Notes under the pieces: model-generated
What the model was told of the DNA's origin: nothing
Databases searched by the model: none
What the model saw: the letters and a program-made list of their open reading frames with translations, nothing else
Made by a program: the position numbers and the translations under genes
Shown here: in pieces, positions 2,551-61,580 of the stretch
How the letters are laid out: each line of letters begins with the position of its first letter
How positions within the stretch are numbered: the first letter of the stretch is position 1
IMG/VR virus record: IMGVR_UViG_3300035047_000236
Source: a virus
Length of the DNA stretch: 64,000 nucleotides
Strand: one strand, 5' to 3'

Positions 2551-3631
2551 TTATTTTCTCCTTTACTTCGCTCTGTGTTATCATTTCTATATCTATACCA
2601 TTAGAAAGTAAAAACTCTATTTTAATTTGGTCTAATTCAGTAATATATCCTTTAACTTCTACAAACTTATTTTCTTTTGGAAAGAAAAAATCTGGTGTAT
2701 ATGTTCTTCTTTTTCCCTCACCATCTATGTATGGAAATGTTTTATATTCATATAACCAATCAATGTTTTCTTTATCCAAAAGCGATGCATATGTTGCCTC
2801 CAATTTGGATCTTAGAGTGATTTTTCCTTGGTTAGGTGAATCATATTCAACCAAGGTTCCTCTGTTGTTTTTATAATTGTGGTTGATAACAGCTTTTTCT
2901 GATATATTACATGTTCTAACAGATTCATTTCTTTTTGCTGTGGCACTCTTTCCGAAAAATTTTCTAAATTGTCTAGTTAGTGCGTGTCTTTCTATACCTG
3001 TCTCTTTACTTATATCTCCTAATGACATATCGCTGTCAAAATATTGTTTCATCATATTGTATTGGTATGTTAGGTGGTCTTTACATTTTTTTGACTTCAT
3101 TGATAAGTGCTGATTTAGTTTATTAACTAGGACACTACACACTGGACATGGGACACAGGAACTTAAATCTCTTTTCGATTCTTCATAACAATTATAACAT
3201 AACCCGTCTTTAACATGATGGGTTTCGGTTGTGCCACACAATCTGCACTTATCATAATACCAAGACCAAGCACCAAAATTCCTTTGTACTTTACCTTTAT
3301 TCCTACTAATAATATTACCACGACATTTTGTACAAAAACCTTTTGATTTATGAGGTCTATCAGTTCTTCCACACCCCACACACATATCAAATTTTATGGA
3401 CCATTTTCCTATATTTTTCTTTTTTCTATTATATAAATCAAATCTATAACATTTAGTACACAAACCTCTTCCTACATGTCGTCTTTCTGTAGTTCCACAT
3501 ACAACACATTCACTATGTTTAATAGACCACCTATCACCAAGAGAAAATCTATCTATAATTACATTGTGACCATGAATAAAAATATTACCTTCTTTTACTT
3601 CACAGCCACAACCACATTTACACAAGGACAT
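2540..3631 (-). CDS. free-standing endonuclease: tandem zinc-finger repeats plus C-terminal PD-(D/E)XK (TnsA/T7 endo I-like) domain
   Basis: Three W-x5-CxxCGxTxxxHxxxxxCxxC repeats. C-terminus reads LRSKLEATYA...YEYKTF...YTPDF...FVEVKGY. Confidence 0.75.
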   Translation of the reverse strand: MSLCKCGCGCEVKEGNIFIHGHNVIIDRFSLGDRWSIKHSECVVCGTTERRHVGRGLCTKCYRFDLYNRKKKNIGKWSIKFDMCVGCGRTDRPHKSKGFCTKCRGNIISRNKGKVQRNFGAWSWYYDKCRLCGTTETHHVKDGLCYNCYEESKRDLSSCVPCPVCSVLVNKLNQHLSMKSKKCKDHLTYQYNMMKQYFDSDMSLGDISKETGIERHALTRQFRKFFGKSATAKRNESVRTCNISEKAVINHNYKNNRGTLVEYDSPNQGKITLRSKLEATYASLLDKENIDWLYEYKTFPYIDGEGKRRTYTPDFFFPKENKFVEVKGYITELDQIKIEFLLSNGIDIEMITQSEVKEKINEV

Positions 3632-3651: not shown

Positions 3652-5226
3652 TTAAGAGTAATCAAGGTAAGTTCTAAGGTTGATGGTACTATTTGATCCT
3701 GTCTCAGCTGATCCCAATTTAATATTTACCCACATAGGATCTGAAACTAAACCAAAATTACCAACACTTTCACTATCATCAGCATTAGTTACCACAGATA
3801 AATTTCCCTTAGTATGATATAGATATGAAGGAGCTATATCATTACTTATATCTGAGGGCTGAACACTGGGCCACCATTCTATCCCTGTGTTAGGAGATAT
3901 CCCTGAACTATTGCCTGGACCAACAGTTCCAAACCTAAACATAGTGTCGCTGTTTCCTTCATTATGATGCTCAAAAGTTCCATGATTTTGCAAACCAAAT
4001 TTAACTGTAGACAACTCTACAGCACCACTTACTATTTCAAACATAACACACTTGACTGGAGATTCTGTACTTACAGTTACATTTCCATAATTCAAAGATG
4101 TTATATTGTATGCTGAAGGTTTAGGAGCAGAACATATAACATAAAATTCGTCTCCTGCACTTAACTCATCAGGACCAACAGGATTAAATCTTATACTTAA
4201 ACCCCTAGACCCTAGTTGTGTAAAAGAACTAGAAGAAGATGTTATAGGTGTTGCACTATCATCTCCCCTATTAGAAGAGTATACATACTGTGCTGTTCCT
4301 GGAGAAGCTGAAGCATTAGTTCCTTGAGCATAATCAGGTTTATAGCAATTTATTGTCCAGGCTGGGTCTGCCTGATTAAAAACAGCATCAGAAAACTTCA
4401 CCATAAGGCCATAATCACCTATTTTATACCAATGATCTGGATATAGAAGTTCTGTATATGTAGTAGAATCATCTGTTCCTGTCGATGTCCAACTAATTCT
4501 AGGCACATTGTCTGTAGTGGCCCCCATAGTTGAACCGTTTGTTACATCCACAGCTATTACATATGTAATATTAGATGGACCATTAAATGTACCTCCAGTA
4601 ATCATAGTTCCAGAATATGAATTGCCTAAACCTTTAGTAGGGGTTGCAATACCTCTTGGTGCAGATACAGCCTCAGTAAAAGAATCGCTACTTACAACTA
4701 TTTTATACACCTCATCACTAAACCCATAATAAGTACCGCTAATTGTTACGTCACCAAAAAACCCATTAGAACTAGCGGCCCCACCTTCTTCTACCTTATC
4801 ATTAAAACCCAAAGTAGGACCAGCAGAGTCTGTTCCAGCTGATGTTACTACTACACTAGAGGAAGACCCTAGTGTTCCTGAGTATATCTCAAACCTATTA
4901 CCGCTACTACCACTATTTACCCACTCACATATAGCATTATCATATCTTGGATTAGCTTTACCAAGGTTGTGTAGTTTCTCAGTTATATCTTTTGCTAAAA
5001 ATCTAGGGTCTAACTCAGAACCGCTATACAGTGTTATATATGGCGCACTATCTCCATCTATACTTACATAAAGTCTATTTGTTGTAGGTCCTATATCAAA
5101 TGTGTCACCTACACTACCTATACCTCTACAAAAACCCCTGGTGCCCTTACATCCATTACCTCCGCCATCATTTGCTATACCAACAGCGTCAGTATCATAA
5201 GCCACCCATCTAGTTATAGCACTCAT
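3652..5226 (-). CDS. virion structural protein (524 aa, Gly/Ser/Thr-rich, beta-rich)
   Basis: Composition and position in the tail cluster. Shares a segment with the 15440..16420 protein. Strong AGGAGG RBS. Confidence 0.6.
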   Translation of the reverse strand: MSAITRWVAYDTDAVGIANDGGGNGCKGTRGFCRGIGSVGDTFDIGPTTNRLYVSIDGDSAPYITLYSGSELDPRFLAKDITEKLHNLGKANPRYDNAICEWVNSGSSGNRFEIYSGTLGSSSSVVVTSAGTDSAGPTLGFNDKVEEGGAASSNGFFGDVTISGTYYGFSDEVYKIVVSSDSFTEAVSAPRGIATPTKGLGNSYSGTMITGGTFNGPSNITYVIAVDVTNGSTMGATTDNVPRISWTSTGTDDSTTYTELLYPDHWYKIGDYGLMVKFSDAVFNQADPAWTINCYKPDYAQGTNASASPGTAQYVYSSNRGDDSATPITSSSSSFTQLGSRGLSIRFNPVGPDELSAGDEFYVICSAPKPSAYNITSLNYGNVTVSTESPVKCVMFEIVSGAVELSTVKFGLQNHGTFEHHNEGNSDTMFRFGTVGPGNSSGISPNTGIEWWPSVQPSDISNDIAPSYLYHTKGNLSVVTNADDSESVGNFGLVSDPMWVNIKLGSAETGSNSTINLRTYLDYS

Positions 5227-6629: not shown

Positions 6630-7628
6630 CTATGTATATTGATAATGAAGTGTGGTTACAAAATCATAATTGCCAGCAGTAATTGAATCTGTCAGATTTA
6701 TTAATCTTGGAAAAAACGCCAAGTATTCACCATACATATTAGGCTCTATATTATGTATTAAATCAAAGTAACCATAGTATAAATCATCTCCTTTTAACAC
6801 CTGCTCATAAGAAGGAGGATAAACCATACTTTTTTCATTAATAAAACCACCAGTATAAAAATCTGTATTTGATGTTTTAAATGTAGCAACATCTACTACA
6901 TAGTGTTCACCGTCAAGTAACAAGTTATTGGTTGTAGAATGTGTATCATCATCCCAAGCAGTTAATTTACAGTTATAAGCCTCTCCAAAAGTAACATCAA
7001 AAACTATAGAAGATTCCTTATTTAATCTAGATTCTATACTATAAGATGCTTCATATTCTTGGTAATATAAATTATTCCCACCTATTGTCCCACTTGCAGA
7101 AGGTACAGCCAATGAGCCACTTATAACAGCATCACCAACAACAGAGTCAAACCTTACATAAACCGTTCCTTTCTCTATTCCTGATAAAGTTGTTGTATCC
7201 TCATAAGTAGCATATGAATCCTGTCCTATAATACCATAGTTATCTCTATCAAAATATACTATAGATGGTTCGGTAGGCGTGCTTAACTTAAACCCTGAAC
7301 CGCCAAAAGCACCCACTCCGTAATCATGCCAAACCGCCAATTCATTATCAGAAGCAAAATCAAACGTTCCGCTCAAAAGAGTAAGTTTTGGAAAAAACCC
7401 ATCAAATTCAGTACCTGCTTCTTGATCATTTACTATTCTATACATATAATCTGTTGTTTCGTACCAAGTACCTAAATATTTTGCCCCAGGCTGGGCATGA
7501 GATCTTGTTCCAGCCACAGCAGGTGTATCTATGTTTGGACTAGTAAAAACAACCTTTACCAACTCGTAGTATCCTGAAGAACCTCCAGGAGGAGAAACCC
7601 AAATCTTTTTATTTATTGTTACAGCCAT
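6630..7628 (-). CDS. putative virion structural protein
   Basis: 332 aa. Shares a WDDxTxSTTN motif and C-terminal layout with 8106..8765. Confidence 0.5.
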   Translation of the reverse strand: MAVTINKKIWVSPPGGSSGYYELVKVVFTSPNIDTPAVAGTRSHAQPGAKYLGTWYETTDYMYRIVNDQEAGTEFDGFFPKLTLLSGTFDFASDNELAVWHDYGVGAFGGSGFKLSTPTEPSIVYFDRDNYGIIGQDSYATYEDTTTLSGIEKGTVYVRFDSVVGDAVISGSLAVPSASGTIGGNNLYYQEYEASYSIESRLNKESSIVFDVTFGEAYNCKLTAWDDDTHSTTNNLLLDGEHYVVDVATFKTSNTDFYTGGFINEKSMVYPPSYEQVLKGDDLYYGYFDLIHNIEPNMYGEYLAFFPRLINLTDSITAGNYDFVTTLHYQYT

Positions 7629-22451: not shown

Positions 22452-25400
22452 TTATAAATTATTAACTGAATTTAAAGATTGATGTGCTAAACTTCTTATA
22501 CTATTAGCATCTGCAGCCAATCTACTAATACTAGAGGTTACATTATTATATAAATCTGATAACCTATATTCAACATTACCTATTCTATTGTTTATATCAC
22601 TTACACTTATAGATAATTTTTCATCTACCTTTGATCCAATTTTATTATCTATTTCTTCCTTTAAATTATTTATTTTTCTATCTACAACCGCAATAGAACT
22701 TAAAAACTTATTATCCATACTAACAATTGCTTCTGATATAGCATCTCTAGCAGAAGCTCCTACACTGTCTACTTTTATATTGGTTGTGTCAACGGCTACC
22801 TTTGAGCTGTTTATAGCGTTAGTAATTGCTGAAGATATTTGATTTGCTACATTCTGAGTATCTACTTTTATATTAGTTGTTTCAACGCCTAATTTTTTAT
22901 CTTCAACTTTAAGCGTTAAATTTCTAAGTTCATTTAACAATGAAGAGCTGTCAATACTTACAGTTTTATCTTCGACTCCTAATTTTTTATCTTCAACTTT
23001 AAGCGTTAAATTTCTAAGTTCATTTAACAATGAAGAGCTATCAATACTTACAGTTTTATCTTCGACTCCTACTTTAGTATCTTTAACCCTAAGTTCTACA
23101 TTGTTTAGATCGTTTATAAGTCTTGAACCATCTACATCTAATTTTTTATCATCAACTCTAAGTTTTATTCTACTTAATTCATTTAATACCTCAGCACCAT
23201 CTAATTTTATTGAAGATTTATTTAAAGACCCAGACACTAAATTAGCTGATATAGTTTCTTTACTTGAATTAACTAACCCTCCATCACCAAAAAACTTTGG
23301 AAGTATAAACTCACCTTTTTGTGCAAAAATAGGTCCAGTTTTATCTACAAACCCTCCGTTATGAAAAACCGGTATAGATCCATTATTAGGATGATTATGT
23401 AATATATTACTTAAAACCTTTCCTCCTTCAGAAAATTCAGATCTAAATTCTCTTAATATCTCATGCATAGCTTTTCTAACCATTCCAGGAGAAGCATTAT
23501 AATCTTTAGCAATATTATTAATACTTATATTGTCTTTAAAAAGACCCATAATACTATCTTTATCTTTATAGTTATTAGCCAAGTATTTTTTTAAGTCAGG
23601 TTCTGTACTTTCAAGATCTTTTATTATACTTTTATATACTAAGTCACTGCCTGTTAAGTTTCTTAGTGTAGACATATAGTTTTCCATATTAGATCTCGAA
23701 TCAGAAGCAGCTGGTTGATTTTTTCTTAGTAAATATCCATCCTTAAGTGCTTCAGAACCACTAGTTCCTATTCCTTGTTCTTCTAAAGAAGACCTTTCAC
23801 TAACATTATTGTAAAGGCCTATTTTTTGTGGTCCATCAAGTCTATTTGTGATATCTCTATTATGTAAACCAACAGTTTGTGGGGGACCAGCATAGCTTTT
23901 TGCACCACTAATAGGAACACCAACCCCAGGAGATCGTTTATTTGATTTAGTTCCGTATAACATACTCCTCAAATAATTTTCTGCTATTACAGCGTCATCT
24001 AAAAAATTCTGTATCTTTGACTCATACTCTACAGTACCATCAAACCCTTTTGCATACTCTATTTCATTCAAAACATCGTTGGACTTACCCTTTAAAGGCA
24101 CACCTTCTTCAAAATTATATACGTTTCCATCTGCGCCTATAGTCGTCTTAGACAAGGGTGAAATTTTAGAAGGAACAGTAACTTTTTTCATTAAATCTGG
24201 GTTTGTATATATATTCTCTCCTCTAGACATCATATCTATCATTTGTCTTGCAGACATTAATGCATCCCTTTTATCTATAAGATCCAAAGCGTCCTTATTT
24301 CCTGATTTTAATAACTCACCAAAAGGTTTTCCAGTTTTACTTATTTTACCCCTTAACATATCAGTGTATCTTCTTATATGCACCGCTTTGTTAAAAAATT
24401 TTACATAATCACTTGGGTAGTCGTTTACTAAAGGTAGATACTCTGAAAATCCAAAATCAGTTTTCTCTGGCATATACAAGGAAGGAGCTTCTAGTCTATT
24501 GGTTTTAGTTTTTATATCTGTAGTAGGGTTTATACCAGCATCCATAAAAAATGGTCCTGTTGGTGTGTAAAAACCTTTTCTTGCCTTGCCAAAAGAGGCG
24601 CCTGTATCTATGTCTTTATATGTATCAAAACCAGTAATTTCATTAAAACTTGAGGTTAAATCTTTTACATTACCAGATCTAACTAAATCTTCAAGTTGTT
24701 TTTGTTTATTTGATCTTTCTATCATTTTAGTTTTAAACATTAAATCTTTTTTTAACATTCTATTTAAACGATTGTTTGCTTTTTCTCTTTCTTCTTCTAT
24801 AATTCTATTTGAAACATCTTTATGAGAATTTATTGCCCAATCATATCCAGAACTATTACTTTCTAGTCTGCCTTCATTTTCTGTTCTCATTAAAGAATAA
24901 CTTCTATCATTAAAATCTTTTTCAGAAACCTCAAAAACACCAGAAGCATCTCCTACAAAAGATCTAATACCTCCTTCAGTAATATTACCAATAGAAGGTG
25001 TGTTGTTTCCAATATTTCTATCAAGATATCTTCCACTTACTTCATTTATACCATCTGATCTACCTATAAAAGATCTAATGTTGTTTTTATTTGAACTTTT
25101 TTGTGTTCCTAAAGCTGCCTGTTTTATTACATCGTCTATCCTCATATTATTTTTATTTATCTCATCATTAGCAAACCTTTCAAATAGAGCACCTAAACCC
25201 TCTCTAACCCTTGTTATAGCATATTCTGGGTCATTTACATATTTGGACTTCATAAATCTATCATATATATTATCTATTGTTATAACATATGGATCTTCTA
25301 CAACTCCGCCGGCTGCAAAAGATGGTAAACCCTCTATCTTGCTTCTTGGGTCAATAGCAGACCATTTACTCCCATGAAACTCTGTTATAGACTCTTTGAG

Positions 25401-28400
25401 TTCCCCAGGAGCATCTATACGATCTGGATCTCCAAACATTTCATGTAAAGCAAAAATCTCTGCATACCTTTCCTCATTAGATTTTCCTCTAGCTTCTGGC
25501 GTAAGATTTTCTTCTGGTATACCCCATAATCTATCTAAAACACTTATCCTTTTTTCTGGTGAGTACCTTTGGTCTATAAAATCCTTACGGTGACCAAACT
25601 CATGCATTAAGGTGCTAATAGGGTCATAATCATAACTATCCCATGTCCTTAATGGGCTGTTCTTATCAAAAAGAGAGCTGCTGTTTAGAAGAACTTTTGA
25701 CTCTCTATTAATACTACCGTCTGAATTCTTTATTCTACTGCTTGCAGCATGTGCACCAAATTTAGTTGAATGTTTGAAGTCTTCAAGATTATATCCTTCA
25801 GGCAAGTTTCCATCAAACAATCCAATTGTTAATCCCTCTTGTATTTCTGGATACTTATCTAATATCTTTTCAATATATGGAGCTAATTTATTATATTGAT
25901 CCAAATTGAAGTAATCATTATCTTTAAAATTGAAATTTACTCCTGGGTATTTTTCAGACAAATATTTATTCTTTTCATCTATGGATTTATACACTGTGCC
26001 GCCTTCTGCAAAACCTGGTATTGTTCCCTTCTTATTTATATGATCTAATGTGTTATACCCAAGTTTCTGTGCTGTATGTGATCTTATAACGAACTCCCCA
26101 GGGCTTAAATATGCTGGAACTTTATCTTCACGAGGTCCTCCCGCGCCGAAAATTCTTCCACCTGAAGCTTTTCTTTCTACATGATCTTTAGTAATTACCT
26201 CTGTAGTTTCCAACCTAGCTTTAAGTACTTTATCTTCAACCTCTAAAGGCTTATCTTCAACTTTTAGAGGCTTGTCATCTACTTTTAAATACTCATTATA
26301 ACCTTCTCCATATATAGGTCTTCTTTTTGCTATATTTATGTGGTTAGTAGAATATAGATCTCTATTTTCTTCCATATATGAAACATGTTCTTTTTGTCTG
26401 TCATAAGCCTCTGGAAAATAATCAATAAAATCAGAAATCTTGCCTGCAACAAAACTAAAAGCTCTTTTTGTAACACTAGAAATAGTTTCTGTAGACGGTT
26501 CGTGTTCAAACCCTGTACCTGCTGGTAGCTTATAACCAACAAAATCTTTTACAACATTAGAAGCGAATTTACCAACTTTAGTATCAGATATGGATGTAAA
26601 TCCTGGGTACAGGTAATCCCTTCTGATTTGATCTTCTCGTGATAGTGGAATTCCAGAAAGTGGTCCAGCATGATCCTCCACATAATCATAATATTTCGTT
26701 GTTCCTAATGCATCTTTCTCACGGAAAGGGGCTGGCCCAGGAGCTGTTCTACTACCTGGGTCATTATCTGCATTAGATTTATCAGCATAAAATAACGATA
26801 TTGTTTGTAAATAACCATTAGCTTTTTCAAGTTGAGTTACTATGGGTTGAGATATGGCTTTATACATAACACCTTCTTCAGATGTAGCCTGTAGGGCTTC
26901 TTTAAATCTTACAATAATTTCATCATATTTATCAAGAAAACCACCATCTACACCTTTATAAAAATAATCAAGCCCACTTTTTTCATAATATTCTTTTCTA
27001 ATATTATACTTTGTTTTATCAAGGTCTCCTTTTTCGTATTGAGACTTTATTTCGTCTAGTTTTTGTTGTTTAGAAACGACCTGAACAGAGCTTTCTAATT
27101 CTCTTCCTATAGTTGAAATTATTTGTCTTATATCAATAACATCATTTTGATTTGTTATTTCCCCAGACTCTAACAGTCTAAACAAATCCTCCTGTAATTT
27201 GACATATGGTGACTGAGTTGTCTCAAAAAGCCTATTCCTTTCAGTCTGTTCTTTTGTAAATACTAAATTTTCATATTTTGAATCTAACTCACTTAGCCTA
27301 TAACTCAACTCCATTTTTTCTTTTGGGTCTTTAGATGTTTCAAGTTTATCAAGTATTTCAGCCCTTTCCACATCCTTAGCTGTACTCTCGCCAGATATTA
27401 AACTAACACCAACCCTAGAGGCCATTCTCTGTTGCTCTGGTGATACTGAAACAGACGCCAGAGGGTGTCCGCCTCCAAGAAGTTTAGATATATTAGTGTT
27501 ATAGTTCTTAGACCCCAAAACTGAGCTAGAAATAGCTGTAGAATTTAAATCATCTAAAGAATCTTTAAGTTTATAGATATACGAACTTAGGGAAGATAAA
27601 TCTTTAAATGATTTACCTAATTCTATAGTGCTTTCCCTAGTTCCATCTAAAGCATTCTTTGCCTCATTCTCAAGTTTCTTAAGCCTGCTTATCTCATAAA
27701 TTCTTAAATTTTCTTCATCTTTAGAGACATTACCTTGTTTCTGCAGAGCTGCCAGATCAAATTCTTTAGATATTCTTTTATCGGACAATACTTTTAGAGC
27801 TTCAAACTGTGTATCGTAAGACCTTTGAAACTTATAAAAAGTATTAAATGCGTCTTTAAAGACTTCTGAAGAACTAGAGAACATACGTTCTTGTACAGAC
27901 ATATCTCTTTCATTTTTTGGCATCCTGAGTTCCCCAGAGAATCCTCTTAATAAATCCCCAGAAGATGTAGGAAAACCATACATAGAGTTTATATCTATAG
28001 AATTTAAAGCCTTAACATGATCTAATTCTATCATTCTTAGAGACTTTATTACCTCAGAAAGAGTCTGTACCTCATTTGCAAAAGATTTAAGCTCATTTAG
28101 AGTCCCATCGAATTCACCTATTTTTTCACCTATAGTTTCTAATGTTTTATTTATTTGATCTGTATAACTTTCTCTTTCTTTACCTTGGCTTATAACCATA
28201 GATTCTAATTTTTTTGAAAAATCTTGTACTTCTTCTCCATCTCCTGATTCTGCTGCTTCCATAAAGCCCTTAAATATTGCAGGCTCTTTTTTAAATATAT
28301 AATATAAATCTTCAAGTTGATCTGAACCTGTTTTTTCTGCGCCTGAAATTTGTCTATCCACTTCTTGTTTATTATCAAGATAGTTTTGTGCGGTAGTAAG

Positions 28401-31400: not shown

Positions 31401-34400
31401 CTTTATATATTTAACTGCTTCTTCATTAGTTCTATCTAAGTTTATGCCTCCATACTCAGTAACGCTTCCGATCATTGAAGGGGCATACTTTGCTACTGCT
31501 TTTTGAAAGTCCTTATCTTGTTTTTCTATGTCAGCTCCGAAAAACATAGGGCTCTTATACTCTCTTATATCTTTTAATCTATTTAATTCTTCTGGATCTT
31601 GTAGTTTTTTAAGCTCTTCTTGGGCAGTTCCTAAAGCATTGTATCTATTTATCAACTCATCTAAACTATCAATCTCTTTTTTGTTTGCCTCTATTACGCC
31701 GGCCTTTGAATCCTTTAAATCTTTAGCAGACCCTACAAAATCCTTTATTGAGCTTATTGCTTTTGGAGCCATAATTCCTAATCCCAAACCAGTTCCAAGT
31801 AAAGGACCCATGGATTTCAGTATGGACGCATGATCAGAGCCAAGGTTCTCCACTAAAGACATACCTAAATTTTCTATACCTGACCCTGCGCCTTTTGTTG
31901 CTTTCCCAACATATTTAATTGGACTTGCAACAAACGTTTCTGCTGCGGCTGCTGCTAATTGGACAGGTATTTTTGGTACAAAACTTCCAACAGTAGTAAG
32001 TTTAGATATAGAGTTTCCAACACTTTCTACAAAAGAACCAACAGCTTTTATTGGTTTGCCAGTATCACTAGCAGTTAATCCTAAAAACTTATTATAATAT
32101 CTTCCAAAAGCAAGTAAGGAATATCCTAATTTACCTAACGAACTTTCAAGATCATCAAACCCTGCACCTTTTTGTATTGAATTCAAACCAAATAGATCTG
32201 GGTCTTTCTCATCTCCAGTACCAAATAATTCATGTCCTCCTACTTTTATACCTTTAGAAAACTCCTTCTTTAGTCCAGAAAACGCTATTTTGCCTTTGTC
32301 AACTATCTGAATTAAGTTGCTTAAGACGCTTTGTCCCTTAGACACATAAGCAAAGAAAGCTGCTGCTCCTGCTGCTGCTAATTTAAATTCACTTGGTATT
32401 GCATTTATTACAGATAGGGCTCCTCTTATACCGGATAATCCCATTTTGAAACTTGGTAGTACCAACTTACCCATCTCAATCTTTAGCTCTGAAAACATGG
32501 CTTTAGTTTGTTCTAATTGCTTAGAATATGTCTTCATAAGAATTAAATTTCTTCTTTCGGCAGAACCCTTAGAATCCATACTATTTTTTACATTTCTTAG
32601 TGCTTCTGACCAGTTATCCATCAAAACTAAAACCTGATTATATTGTCTAGTTCCACCAAGGCCTTGAGCTATAGCCATTTTCTGTGCCCTAGATAGATCT
32701 CCCCACTTTTTAGATAAATCATCTAAAATATCAAAACCAGATCTCATTCCCCCTTCTTCGCCTAAAATACTTACGCCCACTTTACTTAATTCTTTAGGTC
32801 CGGTGTCAGTACCCAATCTTCTCATTATAAACCTAAGAGAAGTTCCAACCTCTTTACCTGTTTGCCTTGTAACAGAACCTATAGCTGTAACAATACCATT
32901 TAATTGATCAAATGTAAATCCTGCGTTTTTGGCAGCCGAAGCAGATTTTTTGATGGCGTCTGCTAAGTTTCCAGAGGTAATAGCTGCTTTGGACTCCACA
33001 TTACTCCAAGAATCTAAAAACCTTATAGACTCTTTACCTTCTTCTGTAAAAACTTTCATAGCAGCGGTTAATGCTTCTGTAGCATCTGTTGATTTAAGGG
33101 TGGTAATATTAGACGCTAAAACAGCAGTCTTAGTTCTATCTGTGACATCTTCCTGTGGTAAACCCTGTTGAGCAAAAACCTTCATTCCTTCCAAAACACC
33201 AGTAACTGGAACTCCGTATTGTTTTGCAAGTCCTACAGAAGTTTTTTGTAAAGAACCAAAATCAGTATTAACTGGGTTCATAACCATTTGTAATTGAGCC
33301 ATTGCTACTTCAACATCACTAATTTGATCTATGGAATCTTTTATATAATCTAATCCGCCATAAACTAAAGAAGCTGCCGCTCCCCATTTTATAACTCTAT
33401 CTATAGCCACCGAGAATGTTCTATTGCCATCAGTCATAGATTTTAATAGATCTTTTTGTCTTTTGGTGAACGAACTAACCTCTTCCCCTGTACCTCTTAT
33501 TACATCACCATACTTCATAAAACTTTCTTTTTGGTTTTCAACAACCCTCCCAGAAGGTTCAAAAACCTTTTTATCATATACAAACTTTTCTCCTGCAGAC
33601 GCCCCTCCCTTACTTTCAGGAGTAGAAAAATATCTTTCTACATTACTAATATTTCTAAGATGTAAAGCTTCCTGTTCTTCCACAGAAAGATCTTTAGATA
33701 CAGGAATAATTGATGGTCTTATTTTTTCTCCAGTTGGGTTACTGTATTTCTCTGATTCTGTATTAACATTTATCCAAACTTTTTCTAATGATTTTAAAGT
33801 TTTAAGGACGTTCTGTAAATAAGCAACCTGTTCACTAGAGTATCTATCTCCTATATCATAAGAAAGCTGTTCTCTTAAGGCATCCTTTAGTCTTGACAAT
33901 CCAGAGCTTACTTTTGAAAAATCCCAAGTTTTACCTATTTCTTCACCTGCTCTTGCTACTAACTCAGCGTCAGTGTATACATCTATAAGAGCTTTATCAA
34001 TGCCTATAAGATCCACTAAAGCTTCCCTTATAGACTCTCTTGGTATAGGAGCTTTTTCTCCTTCAAAATCCAACATCCTATTGAATATAGTTTTTAGTGT
34101 TTTATCTTCTTCTAATGGATCTGATGCTTTTTTTATTAATTCTTCTGTTGTAAGCCTTACTCCTGCTTCTTCAGCAAGTTTTGGGTGTATGTACATCCTG
34201 TCTTCTGTGTATATATCAGTTTTCTTTCCTAAATCTCCTTTAACAGAGTCTTGAAATTTCTTTACCAACCCAGAATATTTATCAAAAGACTTAGTCTGAC
34301 CAGCAACATCTCCTTCTGCTTTAAAACTTTCATATTCTCCAAACGACTCTTTTATTAAATTTACATAATAATCGCCTACAGCAATCCTATATGCTTTCCA

Positions 34401-37400
34401 AGCATTCATAAACTCATTAAAATCTATATCTCCAGAATCCTTCATTTCTGACATAACTGACGCAAACTCCGCTCCCCTAGGGCCCTCTTCTAGTGTTTTA
34501 GTTATTTCCTGCTGGATTCTTTCATTAAATTTCTTAAAACCCTCACTGTCTATATCAACACCTTGAGACCTTTGGTATCTACTTGCGTTCTGGTGTAAAG
34601 ATGTAAGTGCCTTTTCTATATGAATAGTGCCTAAACCTTCTATTACAGGCCTTGATTTAGGTTTATAGGTAAAACGATCCTCCATAGCTTCAGAGTCTTT
34701 TCTTATTGACTCAACCCTATTTCTAAAATTCTTTACATCCTCACTATTTATATACGCGTCTTCAGATGAGACATAATCGGACGATTTATATCCTACTGTT
34801 TGTCTTCTTTCTTGAGCCAAATTGTAATACTCTTTAAGAACATCAATGGCTTTATTTAGTTCATCTAACGGTAAATCTTTTTCTGGAGGCCTGCTAATTA
34901 TTTGTTCATGAGACTCTGTTTTTCCAAAAGTCTTTCCTTGTCTTATTACTTCTTCTCTTGCTGAAGAAACTGCTCTCATATCTCTTTCTAATAATTTATC
35001 GTCAAACTTATGTGATAACACAGCCGGACCTTTGTCAGGGTCAGTGCTACTATAAAAATGAGCAAATGAGTCTGCTCCTTTATTTGTTGCTGCTAAGTAT
35101 AAATTCAACTGAGAAGCTACCTCATCTAATTTGGTATTCTTTAAGTAATTTGATTCTTTACTATTTATAAATTCTTTTATTTCCTGTAAACTAGGTGTTT
35201 CCTTACCTGTTTTTTCTCTAAAAGCTTTAATAGCATCAAATAGTGCAGAAAAGTTATCATCACTTACTGTTTTAATATCTACAATATGATCTGTTATTCC
35301 TGAACCATCTTCCCTAACAACATCCATAGTTCCAGAAAACTCTCCACCTATCTCATCTACAAATTTAGGTATAGGTTTTTCTACAAAAGTATTTAGTTTT
35401 TCGCCTGTTTTACTAATCACATTTTCGCTTTTGTATTTATCTTCAAGTTTTTTATGTATAGCAGTACCAAGTAAAGATGAAGATCTGCCTATATGATTCA
35501 TATCCTCTTTATCTGAAACCATAGTCTTTACTATTTCTTCAACCTGTTTATCTGGAGTAAACTTATCTCCTACTTTCTTTGCTGCATAACCTCCTTTAAG
35601 TCCACTGGCTCTATATTTTTTTCCAAAATCACTTTCACCAATAATAGAACTTTTATCTGTACCAATAAGTTCTTCGGCCCATTTTACTTTTTCCATAAGT
35701 TCTTTAGAAATACCTTGTGGCATAACACCTACATCTGATGGAGTGACACCTATATCAGAAAATGCTGCATTTCTTGAAAACGAATCTGGGGATGCAAAAT
35801 TTAAACTTACTCCATCTGCTACTCCGACGACATAAACTGGAACAGGTTTATCTGACATTCCTTTTAAATCGAAAGATGGTGGTAAATTGGGACCCATTGG
35901 GGTTTCAGGAATACTTCCTCCTTGACTATACAGAGAATGACCAGAAGAAAGTATTCTATCAGAAGCATCTTTACTAATATAATCCTTTATCTGAGGTCTA
36001 TCTGGTTTATAAGCACCAGAAGAGGGAGCAAACTCTAAAAGAAAATCCATCTCTCCTTTTTTAGTTTCTGCGGTCCTTATAATAGTATCCATCTGGGCTA
36101 TAGCCATAGCCCTTTTCTTCATTTTATCTCTTTCTCTTTCTTTAGTCTTTTTATTTTTTTCAAACTCTCTTTTATATTCTTCTTCTGTATCATAATTTTC
36201 CCTAGATGGGTCTGGGTATTCCTCTTCCACCCTTCTTCCTATCTCATGATCAAATTCAAAATCCAGTTCTCTTATAGTTCTTTCTGTCATGCTTGGCGCG
36301 CCTACAGACCTAGCATACTTTTCTACTTTTCTTTTTATATCTTTGTAATTTTCAGGTTTTAAAACATCTTCTGTTGCTGAATGCATGGGAGCTTCACCAT
36401 AAAGTCTTTCTACAACTGGTGACGATATTCTGTCTCCTTCAACCTCCATCATTTTATTTAAACCACTTATAACCCTAGCATCATTCTTAAGATTTTTTAT
36501 AGTACTATCCACCATCTTAGAATATGTATCTCTTCTCTTTTTATCAGAATTAGAAAAATTTGATATGTCATCGTAAAGATTTTGAGAAATAGCCTTTGCA
36601 AACTTATATTTATATATTAATTTTCTGTCTGGATCATCAGCTTCTTTTGTTTTTGGGTCTATAACTCCTAACAACTCAGATGTATCTACATCCCCAAATT
36701 TTTCTTTATACTTACGTATTTGACCAGCTGGTTTAGCAGTGAAAGTTCTGTATTTATATAGTGGTGTTTCTATTTTCTCAAAAGTTTGACCTATATCTAT
36801 ACCGCCTGTTCCTAATTGTTTTCTTATTTCTGTTGAAGCATAAGCTTCAGCATCTTTATCATTTGTAATCCCTTTTATGCTTTTTGCTTCTTCAATTAAA
36901 GCTTCTCTTGCTGCATCTATAATCTGGTTTGACCACTCTATAAGATATCCTTTAAACCCTATAGAATCTACTATATATTTCTTTAACTCTTCTCTATCTT
37001 TTCCTTCCACTTTGGACATCTCGCCTCTACCTGATGCTATCTTTTTTGCATCTTCTAATATAGCACCAGTAGATAGTTTACTAAGCCTCATACCAATAGC
37101 TTTTTCATTTGATTCAGCAAACTCCTTTATATCCTTATATGACCCTTTACCCTCCTCTATTTTAGATATAAGTTTTTTTGCGCCTGGCTCACCTTTTGAC
37201 ATTAACTTGGCTATTTCTCCAGCAACAGGTACCTCTCCAGCATGTTTTACATCAAAACCTTTTTGTTGTGCAACCCTAATCAACTCGTTGGCCATGAAGT
37301 TTAGTTCTTCTCCCATATGTTTCCCTGTTACATTTAAATCAGAAGGAAATCTCTTAGCCATTTCAGGACTAAAATTATAACCGAATTCAGAGTTAATTAT

Positions 37401-40400
37401 ACCTGAACCAGCACCAATACTTCTTTCGTGTATTTTTAAAAGCCTGTTTGTTGCTTCTGTGTCTGGTCCAGTATTTATTTTAAATAATTGTGCATTTATA
37501 GTACTAAGGTATTTAGTATTAAAAAGTTCTTCCTTTATACCATTATTTATAGCCTTAGCTATATTACCTCCTAAACCTTCTAATTCATCAAGTAGATCTT
37601 TAGAGTATTTTTCTACATCTATTTCACCTTCACTATCTGTTGGAGGTTTTACATTTGATATAGCATTAAAAACTTTATCTATGTCTTCTGGACTTCTAAA
37701 TACAGATGGAATTACATCAGCTATTGCATTAAAAGGAAGTTTAGGCTCTCCTGAAGAATCTGGTGTTTTAGCTAATATATTTAATCTTTCTTGGTCACTC
37801 AAATATTCTAATTGCTCAGTAAGAAAAGGCTTTGTCATAAAACCGAAACCTTCTTCTTCTGGGAACTTTTTACTAAAAGCCAGTTGTTGCTCTGCCATAG
37901 CATATTTGCCAGTTGAACCTACCATTGCGCCATAGGTAAATTCATCCCTAAACGCTTTACTTGTAGGACCAGCAGCTGTATCAGGTGAATGAGTATATTT
38001 AAAGTGCTTTTCTATTTCTCTTCTGGCTTCAGCAGTTTTTGCAGAATGTATCTCTATCTGATCTCCATCAAAGTCTAGTTTTTGCTGTTGTGCTATATAT
38101 TTTGGTATTAACCCAGATAAGGCATTTTCAAGTTGACTAATTATGTTTAACAAATTATCTATCTTTACTTCATCTGGTTGTTCTTTTTTGTATTCTAAAT
38201 CTACCTTATCAGTTAGTGATTTTATTATAGAATCTATCTCTTTTTTGTTTGCATCAAAAGCATCAAAATCTAATTCTGGTATACCTGGGGCTGTAAGAGA
38301 GTGTTTAGCTAAATGTCGTCCTCCTTTTTCAGGTTTAAGTAATTTAGCCTCATAAGGTTGGACACTAGATATACCTGTAAAAGGATACCTTACACTCTCT
38401 ATATAAGGAGTTAGTTCCTTTCTTAAATGAATATCCATTTTTTGTTTTTCTACACTATCTTTTATTTTATCAACAAAAGGAAGTATTGACTCCCTATATT
38501 CCAACATCTCCTTTAAGTTAGAATCAACTTTAGTTGGTTTTAATAAAGGGTCTATCCTGTCTTCTTTTTTATTTACACTATATCTTTTTGTAAACTGAAC
38601 AGGAAGTTTTTCAGCATAAAAATCTGGAACACCTAATTCGTGTTGTTTTAAAACTGGTATTCCTTTCTTTTTGTGTGCTTCTATTGCCTTAGCATGTCCT
38701 TCACCTATCTTACTAATTTCTTTAGAAACATCACTTAACTTATTGAATTCATCCCCAACACCATAAGAATCTTCTGATAATATATCATTGATGGTGTTTT
38801 TAAACTCTTCAAATTCTGATGTTTTATCGACAACAGCTGTTACTGCTTTTGCCATAACAGCAGGTATTTTTCTTGTAAAAGCAAGTTCTTGTATAGAACC
38901 AGTTTTTCCTATTACTGTTGTTGCTATAGAATTATAATATTCTATCTTTGCTTTTTCCAGCGCTTTTATCTTATCTTGAATATATTTATCACTATGTTTT
39001 TGATCTACACCAAAAACCTTAGCTATTTCTCCTACCGGTGCTGGACCTATATCAGATGCTATATTCAGGGCTCCTGGTGCTTTGAATCTTTCTTTAAAAA
39101 TTTCTGGAGCATCCTCAGACGGTTTGGTGAATTGGCCTAGTAACTGATCTGCAGCTTGATCTATAGTAGATTGGTAAACCTCAGAAATAGGTTTACCTTC
39201 ATTTATCTTCTTTTGTCTAAACTTCATAACATAGTCGGCTCTAGTTACACCGGTTTTATCGTATGCTGGATTAACTTTATAATTAGAAAGAACTTTAAGC
39301 ATGGGATCTAATATTTCGTTTAGTCTTAACTCCCCCATATCACCTATATTTTCTACATATCTTCCTGTTCCACTGTCTTTGGTTATGGTTCTGGCCTCTG
39401 ATCTTAGATTAGAAACTTTACTCTTTATTAATCCAATGGTTTTAAACTTATCTTCTTCAGTTTTAGGGGAACCAGTGGTAGCCTCATCCAAGTCTTTGGC
39501 TGCAACTACTACACGATTTAATCTTCTAGATATTATATCTAAACCATACTCTCCTGCCATTGTTGGTTCAGGATATGTTGTTCTACCTATAGAGCTAGGT
39601 ACATACAAACTGTCCCTTTGTTTAGGATCTCTTGTACTAGGTATTTGAAGACTTAAAGCGCCTGGGTATTTCTCATAATCAAGTACAGTATCTTTGAAGC
39701 TTCTTGGGTCTTTTACCTTTACAGTATTACCATATCTATCTGTTTTAAATTCTGAGTCGTCTTCAAAATGACCAGTACTTTCTGTAAACCCATAAAGATC
39801 TGCTACATCTACTTTCTTGGCTGAAGATAATAATTTTTCAGCCATATCTTTTCTACTACTGTTTATGGTTTGTAAAACCTTTATATATTCCCAATGCTTT
39901 TTTGACTCTATTGGTACATCTTCTGCTACTTCCCCAAGTAATTTAGAACTTTCACCAAATATCGCAGAATAAGCTCCAAAGGCAGGAAGATTTAATCTCT
40001 CTCCCTTTATTTGTTTTTCTATATCTGTTGATGACCACTCTGCGTATTCATGAGGATCTTCAGTTATTTCAACAAATTTCGGTCCTATTAGACTTTTTCT
40101 CTCTGTACCAAACTCATCAAATATATCACTATAAAAACTGGACCTGTGCTCTAGCTCTGCTAAACTTTTTGCTTTATTTTTCAGTTTACTTATCTCTGAT
40201 TCATCTAAAACTCCACCAGATTTACGTTTTAGCATTTCAAAAATTTCTTCTTGTATTTTACCTATAGATTCTTCTTGTTTTTTAAAACCTAACGCACCAC
40301 TTATTTTATTAAGATTTAATTTTTCGTCATATTTGTCTGTAGGTACTCCAAGCATGCTCTTATATACATCTGGTTTGAATTCAGTTTCTAAAACAGTTTT

Positions 40401-49172: not shown

Positions 49173-50576
49173 TCAAAAATTACTCAGGTTGGCGAGTAAA
49201 ACTTCGTCCTTGTTATCATTCACAAAACGAGGCAGTAATGTGTCTGATAAGCCTTTCCCGTCTTTAAATCTTATACTTTTTATATATCCACAATCATAAA
49301 TCGTATTATATTTGATGCCGTTTGAAGAACTAAATCTTCTTTTATTACTACTAAAAAACCAGGGCTTTGGTTTAATAAGTATATTATTAACAAAACCTAA
49401 ATTGTGTAATTCCTCAGTGCAAAATTCCCATCTTAAATCAAATGTTATGATAGTAAATTCTTTATCGAAACTTGAATCAATATACTCTAGTAGATTTTTA
49501 AATATATAATTCTTATAACTATAAAATTCTTTATCAACAACAAAAGTATCTATCGACAATCCCTCATAAAAACAACTTATTCCTGCCACACCTATAATCC
49601 TGTAATCATTAAACAAACCAACAACTTGATCAGCATGTTTATTAAAGTGTAACAAATTGTTTTTATCAGAAAAATATTTATATGTTTCTATACTTATAGA
49701 GGTTACATTAACAGATAAATGTTCGTTTTTTCTTCTACTTAATAAACCAGATAAAATTCCCTTAACTATATCCTTTTTACTTACCCACTCGTCTTCAAAT
49801 ATTGTTATTAACAAATATCCTTTTTCTTTACAAAGGATGAGTTTATTTAAATGGTAATCCTCTCCCTTTCCGAACCTATCTGAATGCCAATACAAACCAC
49901 AATATTCTATAGCTATTTTATATTTTTCAAGCAACAAATCAATTTCATATGGTTTTATTAATTTTCTATCGTTCTTGATTATGTTTTCTGTGTATATAGT
50001 TAAGAAGTCATACAACTCTTGTTCTGCTTTAGAAACACCAACAAAGTTACACTCTGTGCATCTTACGCCTTTAGAGTTCCAATTATCCCAAGAAACTGAG
50101 TATATGTGTCCATTACAACACATTACATCTAATAATTCTTTATTGTTGTTATAATCTTTACTTAATAATTTTTCGCCTGCTGAAGAAAAAGATTTACTTA
50201 TATAATTATATGAATGCTTTTCTTTTCCAGAGCACTTCATGCACCTATGCCCAACATTCCAATTGTTCCATGAGATACTTCCAAAATGGTTATTAGGACA
50301 TACATATTTTAGTTTTTGAGATGAGTTACTATAGTGATTAGTTATCAACCTATAACCATTAACTAAAAAATCTTCACGTATAAATTCTATTGTTAGTTTT
50401 CTATTTCCTGAACATTTTGAGCAACCAACACCTCTCCTTAAATGATCTATACGCATGCTACCAATGTGTCCTTTTGGGCAAACATAATCAAACCTTTGTT
50501 TACTATTAATATACTCGTCTGTAATTAATACAAACCCACGATCATAAAACTCTTTTCTTACATCGTCTATTCTCAT
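49173..50576 (-). CDS. free-standing homing-type endonuclease (Zn-ribbon repeats + Vsr/DUF559-like PD-(D/E)XK, Hef-like C-terminus)
   Basis: Three G(F/Y/E)xL...Y...CxxGH...CxxC repeats. YEIDLLLEKYKIAIEYCGLYWHSD...LITIFEDEW. Ends near IYDCG. Confidence 0.75.
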   Translation of the reverse strand: MRIDDVRKEFYDRGFVLITDEYINSKQRFDYVCPKGHIGSMRIDHLRRGVGCSKCSGNRKLTIEFIREDFLVNGYRLITNHYSNSSQKLKYVCPNNHFGSISWNNWNVGHRCMKCSGKEKHSYNYISKSFSSAGEKLLSKDYNNNKELLDVMCCNGHIYSVSWDNWNSKGVRCTECNFVGVSKAEQELYDFLTIYTENIIKNDRKLIKPYEIDLLLEKYKIAIEYCGLYWHSDRFGKGEDYHLNKLILCKEKGYLLITIFEDEWVSKKDIVKGILSGLLSRRKNEHLSVNVTSISIETYKYFSDKNNLLHFNKHADQVVGLFNDYRIIGVAGISCFYEGLSIDTFVVDKEFYSYKNYIFKNLLEYIDSSFDKEFTIITFDLRWEFCTEELHNLGFVNNILIKPKPWFFSSNKRRFSSSNGIKYNTIYDCGYIKSIRFKDGKGLSDTLLPRFVNDNKDEVLLANLSNF

Positions 50577-60647: not shown

Positions 60648-61580
60648 TTAGAGGTTACTTAAAAGACTACTTATTTTATCTTTACCATTACCATTAAACC
60701 ACTCATCATCAGTAACTATAATAAGTTTTATTCCTTTTCTTTTACAAAACACCCTTTTAATCTTATCATTTTCCTTTACCTTACTTTTAGAGTGCCAATA
60801 AATACCATTACACTCTATAGCAATCTTTTCTTTAGGTAGATAAATATCAAGCTCAAGGTATCTTTTAGTTTTATTATTAAATACAGTATTTCTGTCATTT
60901 AGTATAATACTGCCTTTATACATCTTTTTTACAAGATTTCTTACTGATACTTCAAACTTAGAAACGTAATCATTTTTAACATAACATCTAAAACATCTAT
61001 TGCCCATATCTTTGAAGTTATGAAAATTAGTACTCCATTCATGACCTTTAGGACATAGTAATAACAATTTTTGTCTATTGTTTATATACTTCTTTGTTAA
61101 TAATTTGTAACCAAACTTACTAACATATTTTCTTACATAATCTGTTGTGTGCTGATGTGTTTTACCAGGGTCGTACTTTTTTGCATTAGAATTCTTCTTC
61201 CTATAGTCCCTAGCTTTTTTTAGTTTGCATTTTTTATTGTTTTCTTTGTAGTATCTTCTTCCTTTTTCTATAAGATACTTTTTAGATCTTTTCTTATGTG
61301 TCTTAGCACTATTTATTCTTCTTCTTTCTTTATCACATTCTTCTGAACCACATGTTACTTGTCTTTTGTAGTGTGTTTCAAACTCCTTACCACATACTTT
61401 ACATTTTTTCTTATGGAGTTTGTAACCGTTTCTTTTTCTACTTGTCTTTTTCCAACGCTCTTTATCTTTTAATTTAGTGGCTTTTTCTCTACAACTTGGA
61501 CAATATTTCTGGGTTCCTGATGTTGGTATGAATCTATTAGAGCAATTTGGTATTGAACATGTTTTTTCTTTATAAGACAT
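60648..61580 (-). CDS. free-standing endonuclease (Zn fingers + Vsr/DUF559-like PD-(D/E)XK)
   Basis: CKVCGKEF...TCGSEEC and LCPKGH...RCFRC modules. LELDIYLPKEKIAIECNGIYWH...DKIK...GIKLIIV. Confidence 0.75.
   Translation of the reverse strand: MSYKEKTCSIPNCSNRFIPTSGTQKYCPSCREKATKLKDKERWKKTSRKRNGYKLHKKKCKVCGKEFETHYKRQVTCGSEECDKERRRINSAKTHKKRSKKYLIEKGRRYYKENNKKCKLKKARDYRKKNSNAKKYDPGKTHQHTTDYVRKYVSKFGYKLLTKKYINNRQKLLLLCPKGHEWSTNFHNFKDMGNRCFRCYVKNDYVSKFEVSVRNLVKKMYKGSIILNDRNTVFNNKTKRYLELDIYLPKEKIAIECNGIYWHSKSKVKENDKIKRVFCKRKGIKLIIVTDDEWFNGNGKDKISSLLSNL

Follow-up and report, generated by a model that had tools for sequence, protein, structure and literature searches.

The DNA analysed here, a stretch of 64,000 nucleotides from IMG/VR virus record IMGVR_UViG_3300035047_000236 (the window), carries a single 7,646-residue open reading frame (ORF) at positions 22452-45392 on the minus strand, which encodes the tape measure protein of an uncultured large phage. 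Within this protein lies a nuclease of the PD-(D/E)XK superfamily. It forms an autonomous cassette of about 350 residues, joined by flexible linkers and situated between an RNA polymerase-type module and the tape-measure core, and comparison with its homologues shows an active site that is intact and under selection. The best overall explanation, to which we give a probability of about 0.4, is that an active nuclease is ejected together with the tape measure, remains tethered at the site of entry, and most likely processes the leading end of the phage's own genome.

Results

The cassette covers approximately residues 3199-3553 of the giant protein (window 34734-35798; all features given below are on the minus strand). 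These boundaries are approximate and correspond to the block that is missing in the nuclease-less relatives P0047 and P0050, in which the flanks can be aligned. Using hmmsearch, the envelope of the nuclease domain itself was placed at residues 3260-3498 (34899-35615). This is slightly larger than the region singled out in an original prediction made from the DNA letters alone, which ran from 34950 to 35500 and covers residues of about 3298-3481. That prediction named five ordered motifs of RecB/Cas4-family nucleases, and all of them are present in that order and intact in one frame (residues 3309-3432), with D3372 and K3374 numbered exactly. GTAIH (residues 3309-3313, 35454-35468), with G3309 and H3313, lies on the first core helix and aligns to LGDILH of the Cas4 protein SSO0001; H3313 is likely a metal ligand. 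VEK (residues 3337-3339, 35376-35384) places E3338 (35379-35381) on the first core strand, which comprises positions 65-71 of the structural model described below. GTMD (residues 3354-3357, 35322-35333), with G3354 and D3357, provides the first catalytic aspartate on the second core strand and aligns to GRAD of SSO0001. DIKT (residues 3372-3375, 35268-35279), with D3372 and K3374, is found on the third core strand, represents the (D/E)xK signature of the superfamily, and aligns to IEIKT of SSO0001. Finally, QLNLY (residues 3428-3432, 35097-35111), with Q3428 and Y3432, is located on the second core helix and matches the QxxxY of the RecB family. Between DIKT and QLNLY there is an insert of about 50 residues that is helical in the model (helices at 109-126, 133-139, and 143-166). 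Upstream of the nuclease runs a linker rich in proline, glycine, and serine, which together make up 35% of its residues (residues 3140-3265, 35598-35975).

The 76 homologous domains that were compared share between 22 and 55% identity with the window's domain (median, 30%), and each active-site position is covered in 75 or 76 of them, as one fragment is incomplete. Seven active-site residues are invariant wherever covered: Q3428 and Y3432 in all 76 domains, and H3313, E3338, D3357, D3372, and K3374, together with G3309, in 75/75. G3354 and Q3283 are likewise invariant. The catalytic residues proposed originally are conserved among homologues, and the motif match is far beyond chance because these residues do not vary in domains of such low identity and because the fold searches returned only PD-(D/E)XK proteins. 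The possibility of an inactive relic was rejected on account of the invariant active site. It could be argued that the fold is kept for a noncatalytic purpose, either as a DNA-binding domain or as a structural spacer in the tail lumen, as a tape measure has to be long and activity has been lost in many PD-(D/E)XK domains elsewhere. However, the seven residues have stayed the same while the remainder of the domain drifted to 22-55% identity, and we consider a noncatalytic role very improbable. The fold, the profile matches, and the invariant residues together show a PD-(D/E)XK domain of the RecB/Cas4/AddB/MGME1 type, which is predicted to be competent for catalysis and to depend on metal.

The structural prediction points in the same direction. 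An AlphaFold2 model of the domain, built from a 10-sequence alignment, has a mean predicted local distance difference test (pLDDT) score of 81.7 and a predicted template modelling (pTM) score of 0.79. Its topology is alpha-beta-beta-beta-alpha-beta, that of the PD-(D/E)XK core, and the motif residues are on the elements where they are expected. In the model, the first long helix carries H3313, three consecutive strands carry E3338, D3357, and D3372/K3374, and the next long helix, which is followed by two further strands, carries Q3428 and Y3432. A Foldseek search against the PDB returned RecE (E value, 3e-5), MGME1, Cas4 SSO0001, Exo5, and lambda exonuclease as the top matches, and also AdnAB and the Cas4-Cas1-Cas2 complex. 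When the model was compared by VIA-align with 48,161 chains, the Z scores were 9.7 for the phage-related exonuclease 3k93, 9.6 for Cas4 (4ic1), 9.0 for LHK-Exo, and 8.3 for lambda Exo. All matches in the viral and AlphaFold-cluster (AFDB) structure libraries were PD-(D/E)XK, Cas4, RecB, or ExoVIII proteins, and PD-(D/E)XK nucleases made up all of the top matches in the four libraries that were searched. The influenza PA and hantavirus L endonucleases were among the weaker matches. Template modelling scores (TM-scores) were modest, at 0.36-0.53, which fits a divergent member of the superfamily that carries a helical insert of about 50 residues.

Profile comparisons give a similar picture. A search with the domain against 1.84 billion representative proteins yielded only 23 relatives, nearly all of them giant proteins of 7,000-8,000 residues or fragments of such proteins. 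The profile of the resulting 24 domains matches Cas4 SSO0001 (PDB 4ic1) with an E value of 4.3e-5, and the GxxxH, E, GxxD, and (D/E)IKT motifs are aligned; a profile made from 10 sequences gave a weaker match to the same protein. PDDEXK_1 (PF12705) was matched by 10 of the 24 relatives and the NCBIfam cas4 model TIGR00372 by 6 of the 24, in all cases below threshold (best E values, 6.5e-5 and 5.3e-5, respectively). PHROG 1674, annotated as an exonuclease, weakly matches the window's protein (E value, 3.9e-4). The profile search that was suggested for this region therefore places it with the RecB/Cas4-family PD-(D/E)XK nucleases, and the domain is a divergent RecB-like branch of this superfamily, recognised by fold and profile rather than by a curated model. 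Weak Pfam matches to linker histone and to an RPC3 helical hairpin, both within the helical insert, occurred in one or two members only and were not relied on.

By sequence, the Cas4/PDDEXK_1 group is the nearest family. The domain shares with Cas4 SSO0001, RecB, AddB, MGME1, and Exo5 the same core fold and the same order of GxxxH, E, GxxD, (D/E)xK(T), and QxxxY. Unlike the members of the Cas4/RecB group, it contains the helical insert and scores under the PF12705 and TIGR00372 cut-offs. It also differs from Cas4 in that it has no cysteine, has no cas1/cas2 or CRISPR context, and is embedded in a tail protein. The absence of Cas4-type iron-sulfur cysteines had been remarked on from the start and extends to the whole family: cysteine is missing from all 76 domains, the four cysteines of the window's protein all lie at residues 444-465, and most of the giant proteins are cysteine free over more than 7,000 residues. 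An assignment as a true Cas4 was rejected, since zero cysteines in all 76 domains means that there is no iron-sulfur cluster. What is predicted, from sequence and model, is a RecB-like nuclease without such a cluster that would work like Cas4, RecB, or MGME1 and that fails the defining feature of Cas4. The fold match is equally strong for lambda Exo, RecE, LHK-Exo, and the YqaJ-like 3k93, enzymes that come from phages and work on DNA ends. Whereas lambda Exo, RecE, and YqaJ are free-standing early proteins that come with an annealing protein, the window's domain is found within a structural tail protein, and it differs from this group in having the RecB-type QxxxY after the DxK strand.

The tape-measure core of the window's protein is recognised by Pfam as PF10145 (PhageMin_Tail) at residues 4054-4247 (32652-33233; E value, 3.2e-27), and many tape-measure families of PHROGs match residues of about 3950-4800. 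As the catalytic loop motif of the polymerase-type module begins at residue 2440, the nuclease does lie between polymerase and tape-measure core, as was originally described. With the core as a query, we gathered 91 distinct giant proteins of 4,271-7,998 residues, on contigs of up to 325 kb; the 92 proteins that were scanned are these 91 and P0002, a duplicate of the window's protein. Among homologous tape measures, for which a survey of the domain had been proposed, the nuclease is present in 68/91 and truly absent from 23/91 (scores of 3 bits or less with the HMMER filters off). The 68 include P0089, whose domain was recovered, at 138 bits, only when these filters were off. Where the nuclease is present, order and spacing are fixed: the polymerase motif, about 830 residues, the nuclease, about 500 residues, and the tape-measure core. 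In sister pairs with and without the cassette, 300-355 residues are replaced by 13-31 residues, in frame, between flanks that are 45-73% identical. On a tree of the tape-measure core, presence and absence of the cassette need about nine changes, at least seven of which are forced by well-supported branches (after correction for P0089). The most basal proteins on this tree are shorter and lack the cassette. The pattern suggests one early gain and repeated losses, on a tree that is unrooted.

This distribution bears on a possible role in virion assembly. According to that explanation, the site of action is the producing cell or the virion, where the nuclease might trim the portal-side DNA end at head-tail joining, in the manner of the T4-like head-completion nuclease with a restriction endonuclease (REase) fold. 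The N-terminal part of a tape measure is head proximal and lies beside the DNA end that is packaged last, which would suit such a function, and virion-associated nucleases with an REase fold that are required for packaging are mentioned in PMC7824862. On the other hand, an essential step would not be repeatedly lost, and the cassette travels together with a polymerase whose only sensible site of action is the infected cell. We regard an assembly function as improbable.

Other enzymatic domains are also found on these proteins. A subgroup of the relatives has an N-terminal 3'-5' exonuclease of the DEDD/RNase_T type (six with PF00929), mostly beside the PD-(D/E)XK cassette. In P0079, this exonuclease occupies residues 212-399, within the part of the protein in which the window's tape measure has its zinc ribbon. 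Some relatives carry DNA-binding arrays of helix-hairpin-helix motifs in their C-terminal third, namely at residues of about 6690-6750 of P0092 and at positions 18923-28923 of L002; in L002, two directly adjoining ORFs, one of 4,530 residues and the other of more than 4,028, make up the tape measure. Five relatives (L003 to L007) are on contigs that were binned in metagenome-assembled genomes of unrelated phyla (Saccharibacteria, Fermentibacteria, Gammaproteobacteria, and Melioribacteraceae). Most likely, these are phage contigs that were swept into the bins.

The module upstream of the nuclease contains DFDGD at residues 2440-2444 (38061-38075), the catalytic loop of an RNA polymerase-type module. 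DxDGD occurs in 89 of the 92 giant proteins that were scanned, where DFDGDQ..H is conserved. An RxP-type motif lies upstream of DFDGDQ..H. The Pfam family RNA_pol_Rpb1_2 matches at the catalytic loop in 22 of 30 relatives, below threshold, and a PDB profile search with the polymerase region gave only RPB1 matches, which are sub-threshold and also located at the catalytic loop. A predicted structure of the double-psi beta-barrel A (DPBB-A) region alone is of low confidence (pLDDT, 63). The putative identity of this module as an RNA polymerase rests on evidence at the level of motifs.

The physical link with this module raises the possibility that the nuclease is directed at RNA and assists the fused polymerase in transcript processing, in the release of stalled transcripts, or in the decay of host mRNA. 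Some PD-(D/E)XK domains that are attached to viral polymerases act on RNA, and the influenza and hantavirus enzymes appear among the weaker fold matches. In all full-length relatives, the cassette is covalently linked to the polymerase-type module, which precedes it by about 830 residues. DNA nucleases nevertheless account for the best matches and for the combination of QxxxY and GxxxH, and the polymerase is kept in the 23 relatives that lack the cassette. An RNA-directed enzyme has, in our opinion, only a slim chance of being the correct explanation.

All large ORFs of the window are on the minus strand, and its GC content is about 33%. From N to C terminus, the giant protein (22452-45392) consists of the zinc ribbon, the polymerase-type module, the nuclease cassette, the tape-measure core, moderately hydrophobic segments, and an HEFGH motif. 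In JGI data, an identical protein is labelled a TP901-family tape measure protein and is found on contigs of up to 187 kb. The adjoining ORFs that were scanned are divergent tail-type proteins and homing endonucleases, which places the gene in a tail module. Two free-standing ORFs that resemble homing endonucleases lie within this structural module (49173-50576 and 60648-61580); one is of the HNH type (PHROG 559; E value, 3.7e-53), and the other weakly matches REase_MTES_1575. In deposited phages, the tape-measure core matched only ordinary TP901-type tape measures, with at most 36% identity. The four cysteines of the entire protein are arranged as CxxC...CxxxC, resembling a zinc ribbon. Cysteine is almost completely avoided in these proteins, and it is completely missing from the relatives P0003, P0006, P0023, P0079, P0092, and P0097 (4,573-7,745 residues). 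The HEFGH motif is of the zincin type and lies in the C-terminal part at residues 6597-6601 (25590-25604). HExxH is present in 4 of 26 scanned relatives, at other positions, so this type of module also appears to be variable. Near the C terminus (residues of about 7400-7560; approximately 22700-23200) there are repeated segments of the 'VEDK..L' type, and in the translation a stretch of about 35 residues occurs there twice, identical and in tandem.

Discussion

A tape measure is present in only a few copies per virion and exits the tail ahead of the DNA. By analogy with gp96 of Thermus phage P23-45, the N-terminal half of the protein, and with it the nuclease, would enter the host cytoplasm ready-made, in few copies per virion and probably still tethered at the site of entry. 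Delivery into the cell together with the phage DNA is probable on the same analogy. Once inside, a Mg-dependent nuclease of this kind would act on DNA ends or on single strands; relatives of this nuclease clade act on single-stranded DNA or DNA ends and not on intact duplex. We prefer the leading end of the phage's own genome as the target because little else is within reach of a few tethered molecules and because the clade acts on ends and single strands. Speculatively, then, the enzyme would most likely trim or resect that end. Such trimming could prepare the DNA for annealing and circularisation, turn the end into a poor RecBCD/AddAB substrate, or expose a template for the fused polymerase. 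It is also conceivable that nuclease and polymerase constitute one cis-acting entry machine, in which one strand of the emerging end would be resected, the end would be shielded from RecBCD/AddAB, and a single-stranded or open template would become available for the first transcripts; this more specific proposal is doubtful. To our knowledge, processing of the genome by a structural tail protein in a manner coupled to injection is known for no phage.

The closest precedent for the overall architecture is P23-45 gp96. It was shown experimentally that this tape measure carries an N-terminal virion RNA polymerase that transcribes the pre-early genes after ejection (Chaban et al. 2024, PMC10770324). 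The window's protein resembles it in being a giant tape measure with a DFDGD module, putatively a polymerase of the two-barrel type, ahead of the ruler part. No homology beyond the motif was detectable when the DFDGD region was compared with gp96 by hhalign (probability, 5%, which is not significant). A nuclease is not detectable in gp96 (profile score of about 0), and none is mentioned in PMC10770324. Gp96 is the only studied fusion of a polymerase with a tape measure. In our literature searches, we came across neither a PD-(D/E)XK nuclease within a tape measure nor a fusion of polymerase, nuclease, and tape measure, in line with the initial impression that such a fusion had not been described.

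A second comparison can be made with the polyvalent proteins that are injected with phage or plasmid DNA and with tape measures in which enzymes are embedded. Here, too, several enzymatic modules are placed on one protein that enters with the DNA, and their content varies between relatives. In the giant tape measures, a similar variety is seen in the zinc ribbon, the polymerase motif, the nuclease, the tape-measure core, and HEFGH, and the nuclease, the DEDD exonuclease, and the helix-hairpin-helix arrays come and go among relatives. The published survey reports only ParB-like DNases (Iyer et al. 2017, PMC5512222), and it mentions neither a nuclease with the restriction endonuclease fold nor tape measures.

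In the most serious alternative, the ejected nuclease serves in take-over of the host or in counter-defence. Perhaps freed by proteolysis, it would attack the host chromosome, plasmids, prophages, co-infecting phages, or DNA intermediates of defence systems, while the fused polymerase would free the phage from host transcription. The patchy distribution, with about seven to nine gains or losses, and the clean excision of the cassette are typical of accessory conflict modules. Other nucleic acid-related modules are present on the same scaffold, such as the DEDD exonuclease of P0079 and the helix-hairpin-helix arrays of P0092 and L002, and the published injected polyvalent proteins include DNases (PMC5512222). 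Moreover, the injection site is a known battleground, as exemplified by the host nuclease SNIPE, which acts at the lambda tape measure. Set against this, there would be few copies per infection, covalently bound to a protein that is expected to be in the envelope. The nearest structural relatives cut ends or single strands, not intact chromosomes, and the window shows no evident means by which the phage's own passing DNA would be spared. PADLOC or anti-defence evidence was not found, although no search aimed at it was made. Since the cassette was lost repeatedly and some relatives have the companion exonuclease, this role fits almost as well as processing of the phage's own end, and we regard take-over or counter-defence as possible, even if rather unlikely.

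Several points weigh against an ejected nuclease that processes the phage's own leading end. At the level of recognition, Pfam scans of the window's own sequence, whether cut into large pieces or restricted to the domain, detected no nuclease family, including no PF12705, and NCBIfam gave no match for the window's own domain. A tblastn search with the domain against 50,697 deposited phage genomes gave no match either, and there is no cultured close relative. At the level of function, 23 of the 91 relatives lack the cassette, which was gained or lost about seven to nine times. Neither entry, nor the polymerase, nor end processing can therefore depend on it, and an accessory conflict module would explain this patchy distribution no less well. 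The additional DEDD exonuclease of some relatives would suit outright destruction of DNA. The preference for the phage's own end is drawn only from copy number and tethering, which are general knowledge of tape measures, and the domain may be released by proteolysis.

The only cultured handle that we found is gp145 of Bacillus phage 0305phi8-36. The gene for this virion structural protein of 1,930 residues lies between those for the tail chaperonins and for the tape measure gp146, and according to the database record of the protein it was detected in virions by mass spectrometry. It has the collinear motifs GTKIH..E..GGFFD..DIKT..QLNFY, and a weak match to the family profile covers the N-terminal half of that profile together with the conserved helix that precedes GxxxH (hhalign probability, 25%). 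It differs from the window's protein in being a separate protein that is not fused to the tape measure, in lacking DxDGD, and in having its extra segment before the DIKT strand and not after it. The putative nuclease of gp145 is unannotated, and it is not mentioned in the comparative paper on 0305phi8-36.

Ejected proteins decide the first seconds of an infection. Very few of them are known to have enzymatic activities, namely muralytic domains, polymerases, and some anti-restriction proteins. If our interpretation is true, the tape-measure nuclease adds DNA cutting to what a phage is able to do before any of its genes is expressed. The family is large, with at least 68 distinct giant proteins that carry the cassette, and the clean presence or absence of the cassette among close relatives provides natural controls for studying its function. 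The gp145 of 0305phi8-36 may also offer the opportunity to mutate a related virion nuclease in a phage that is available in culture.

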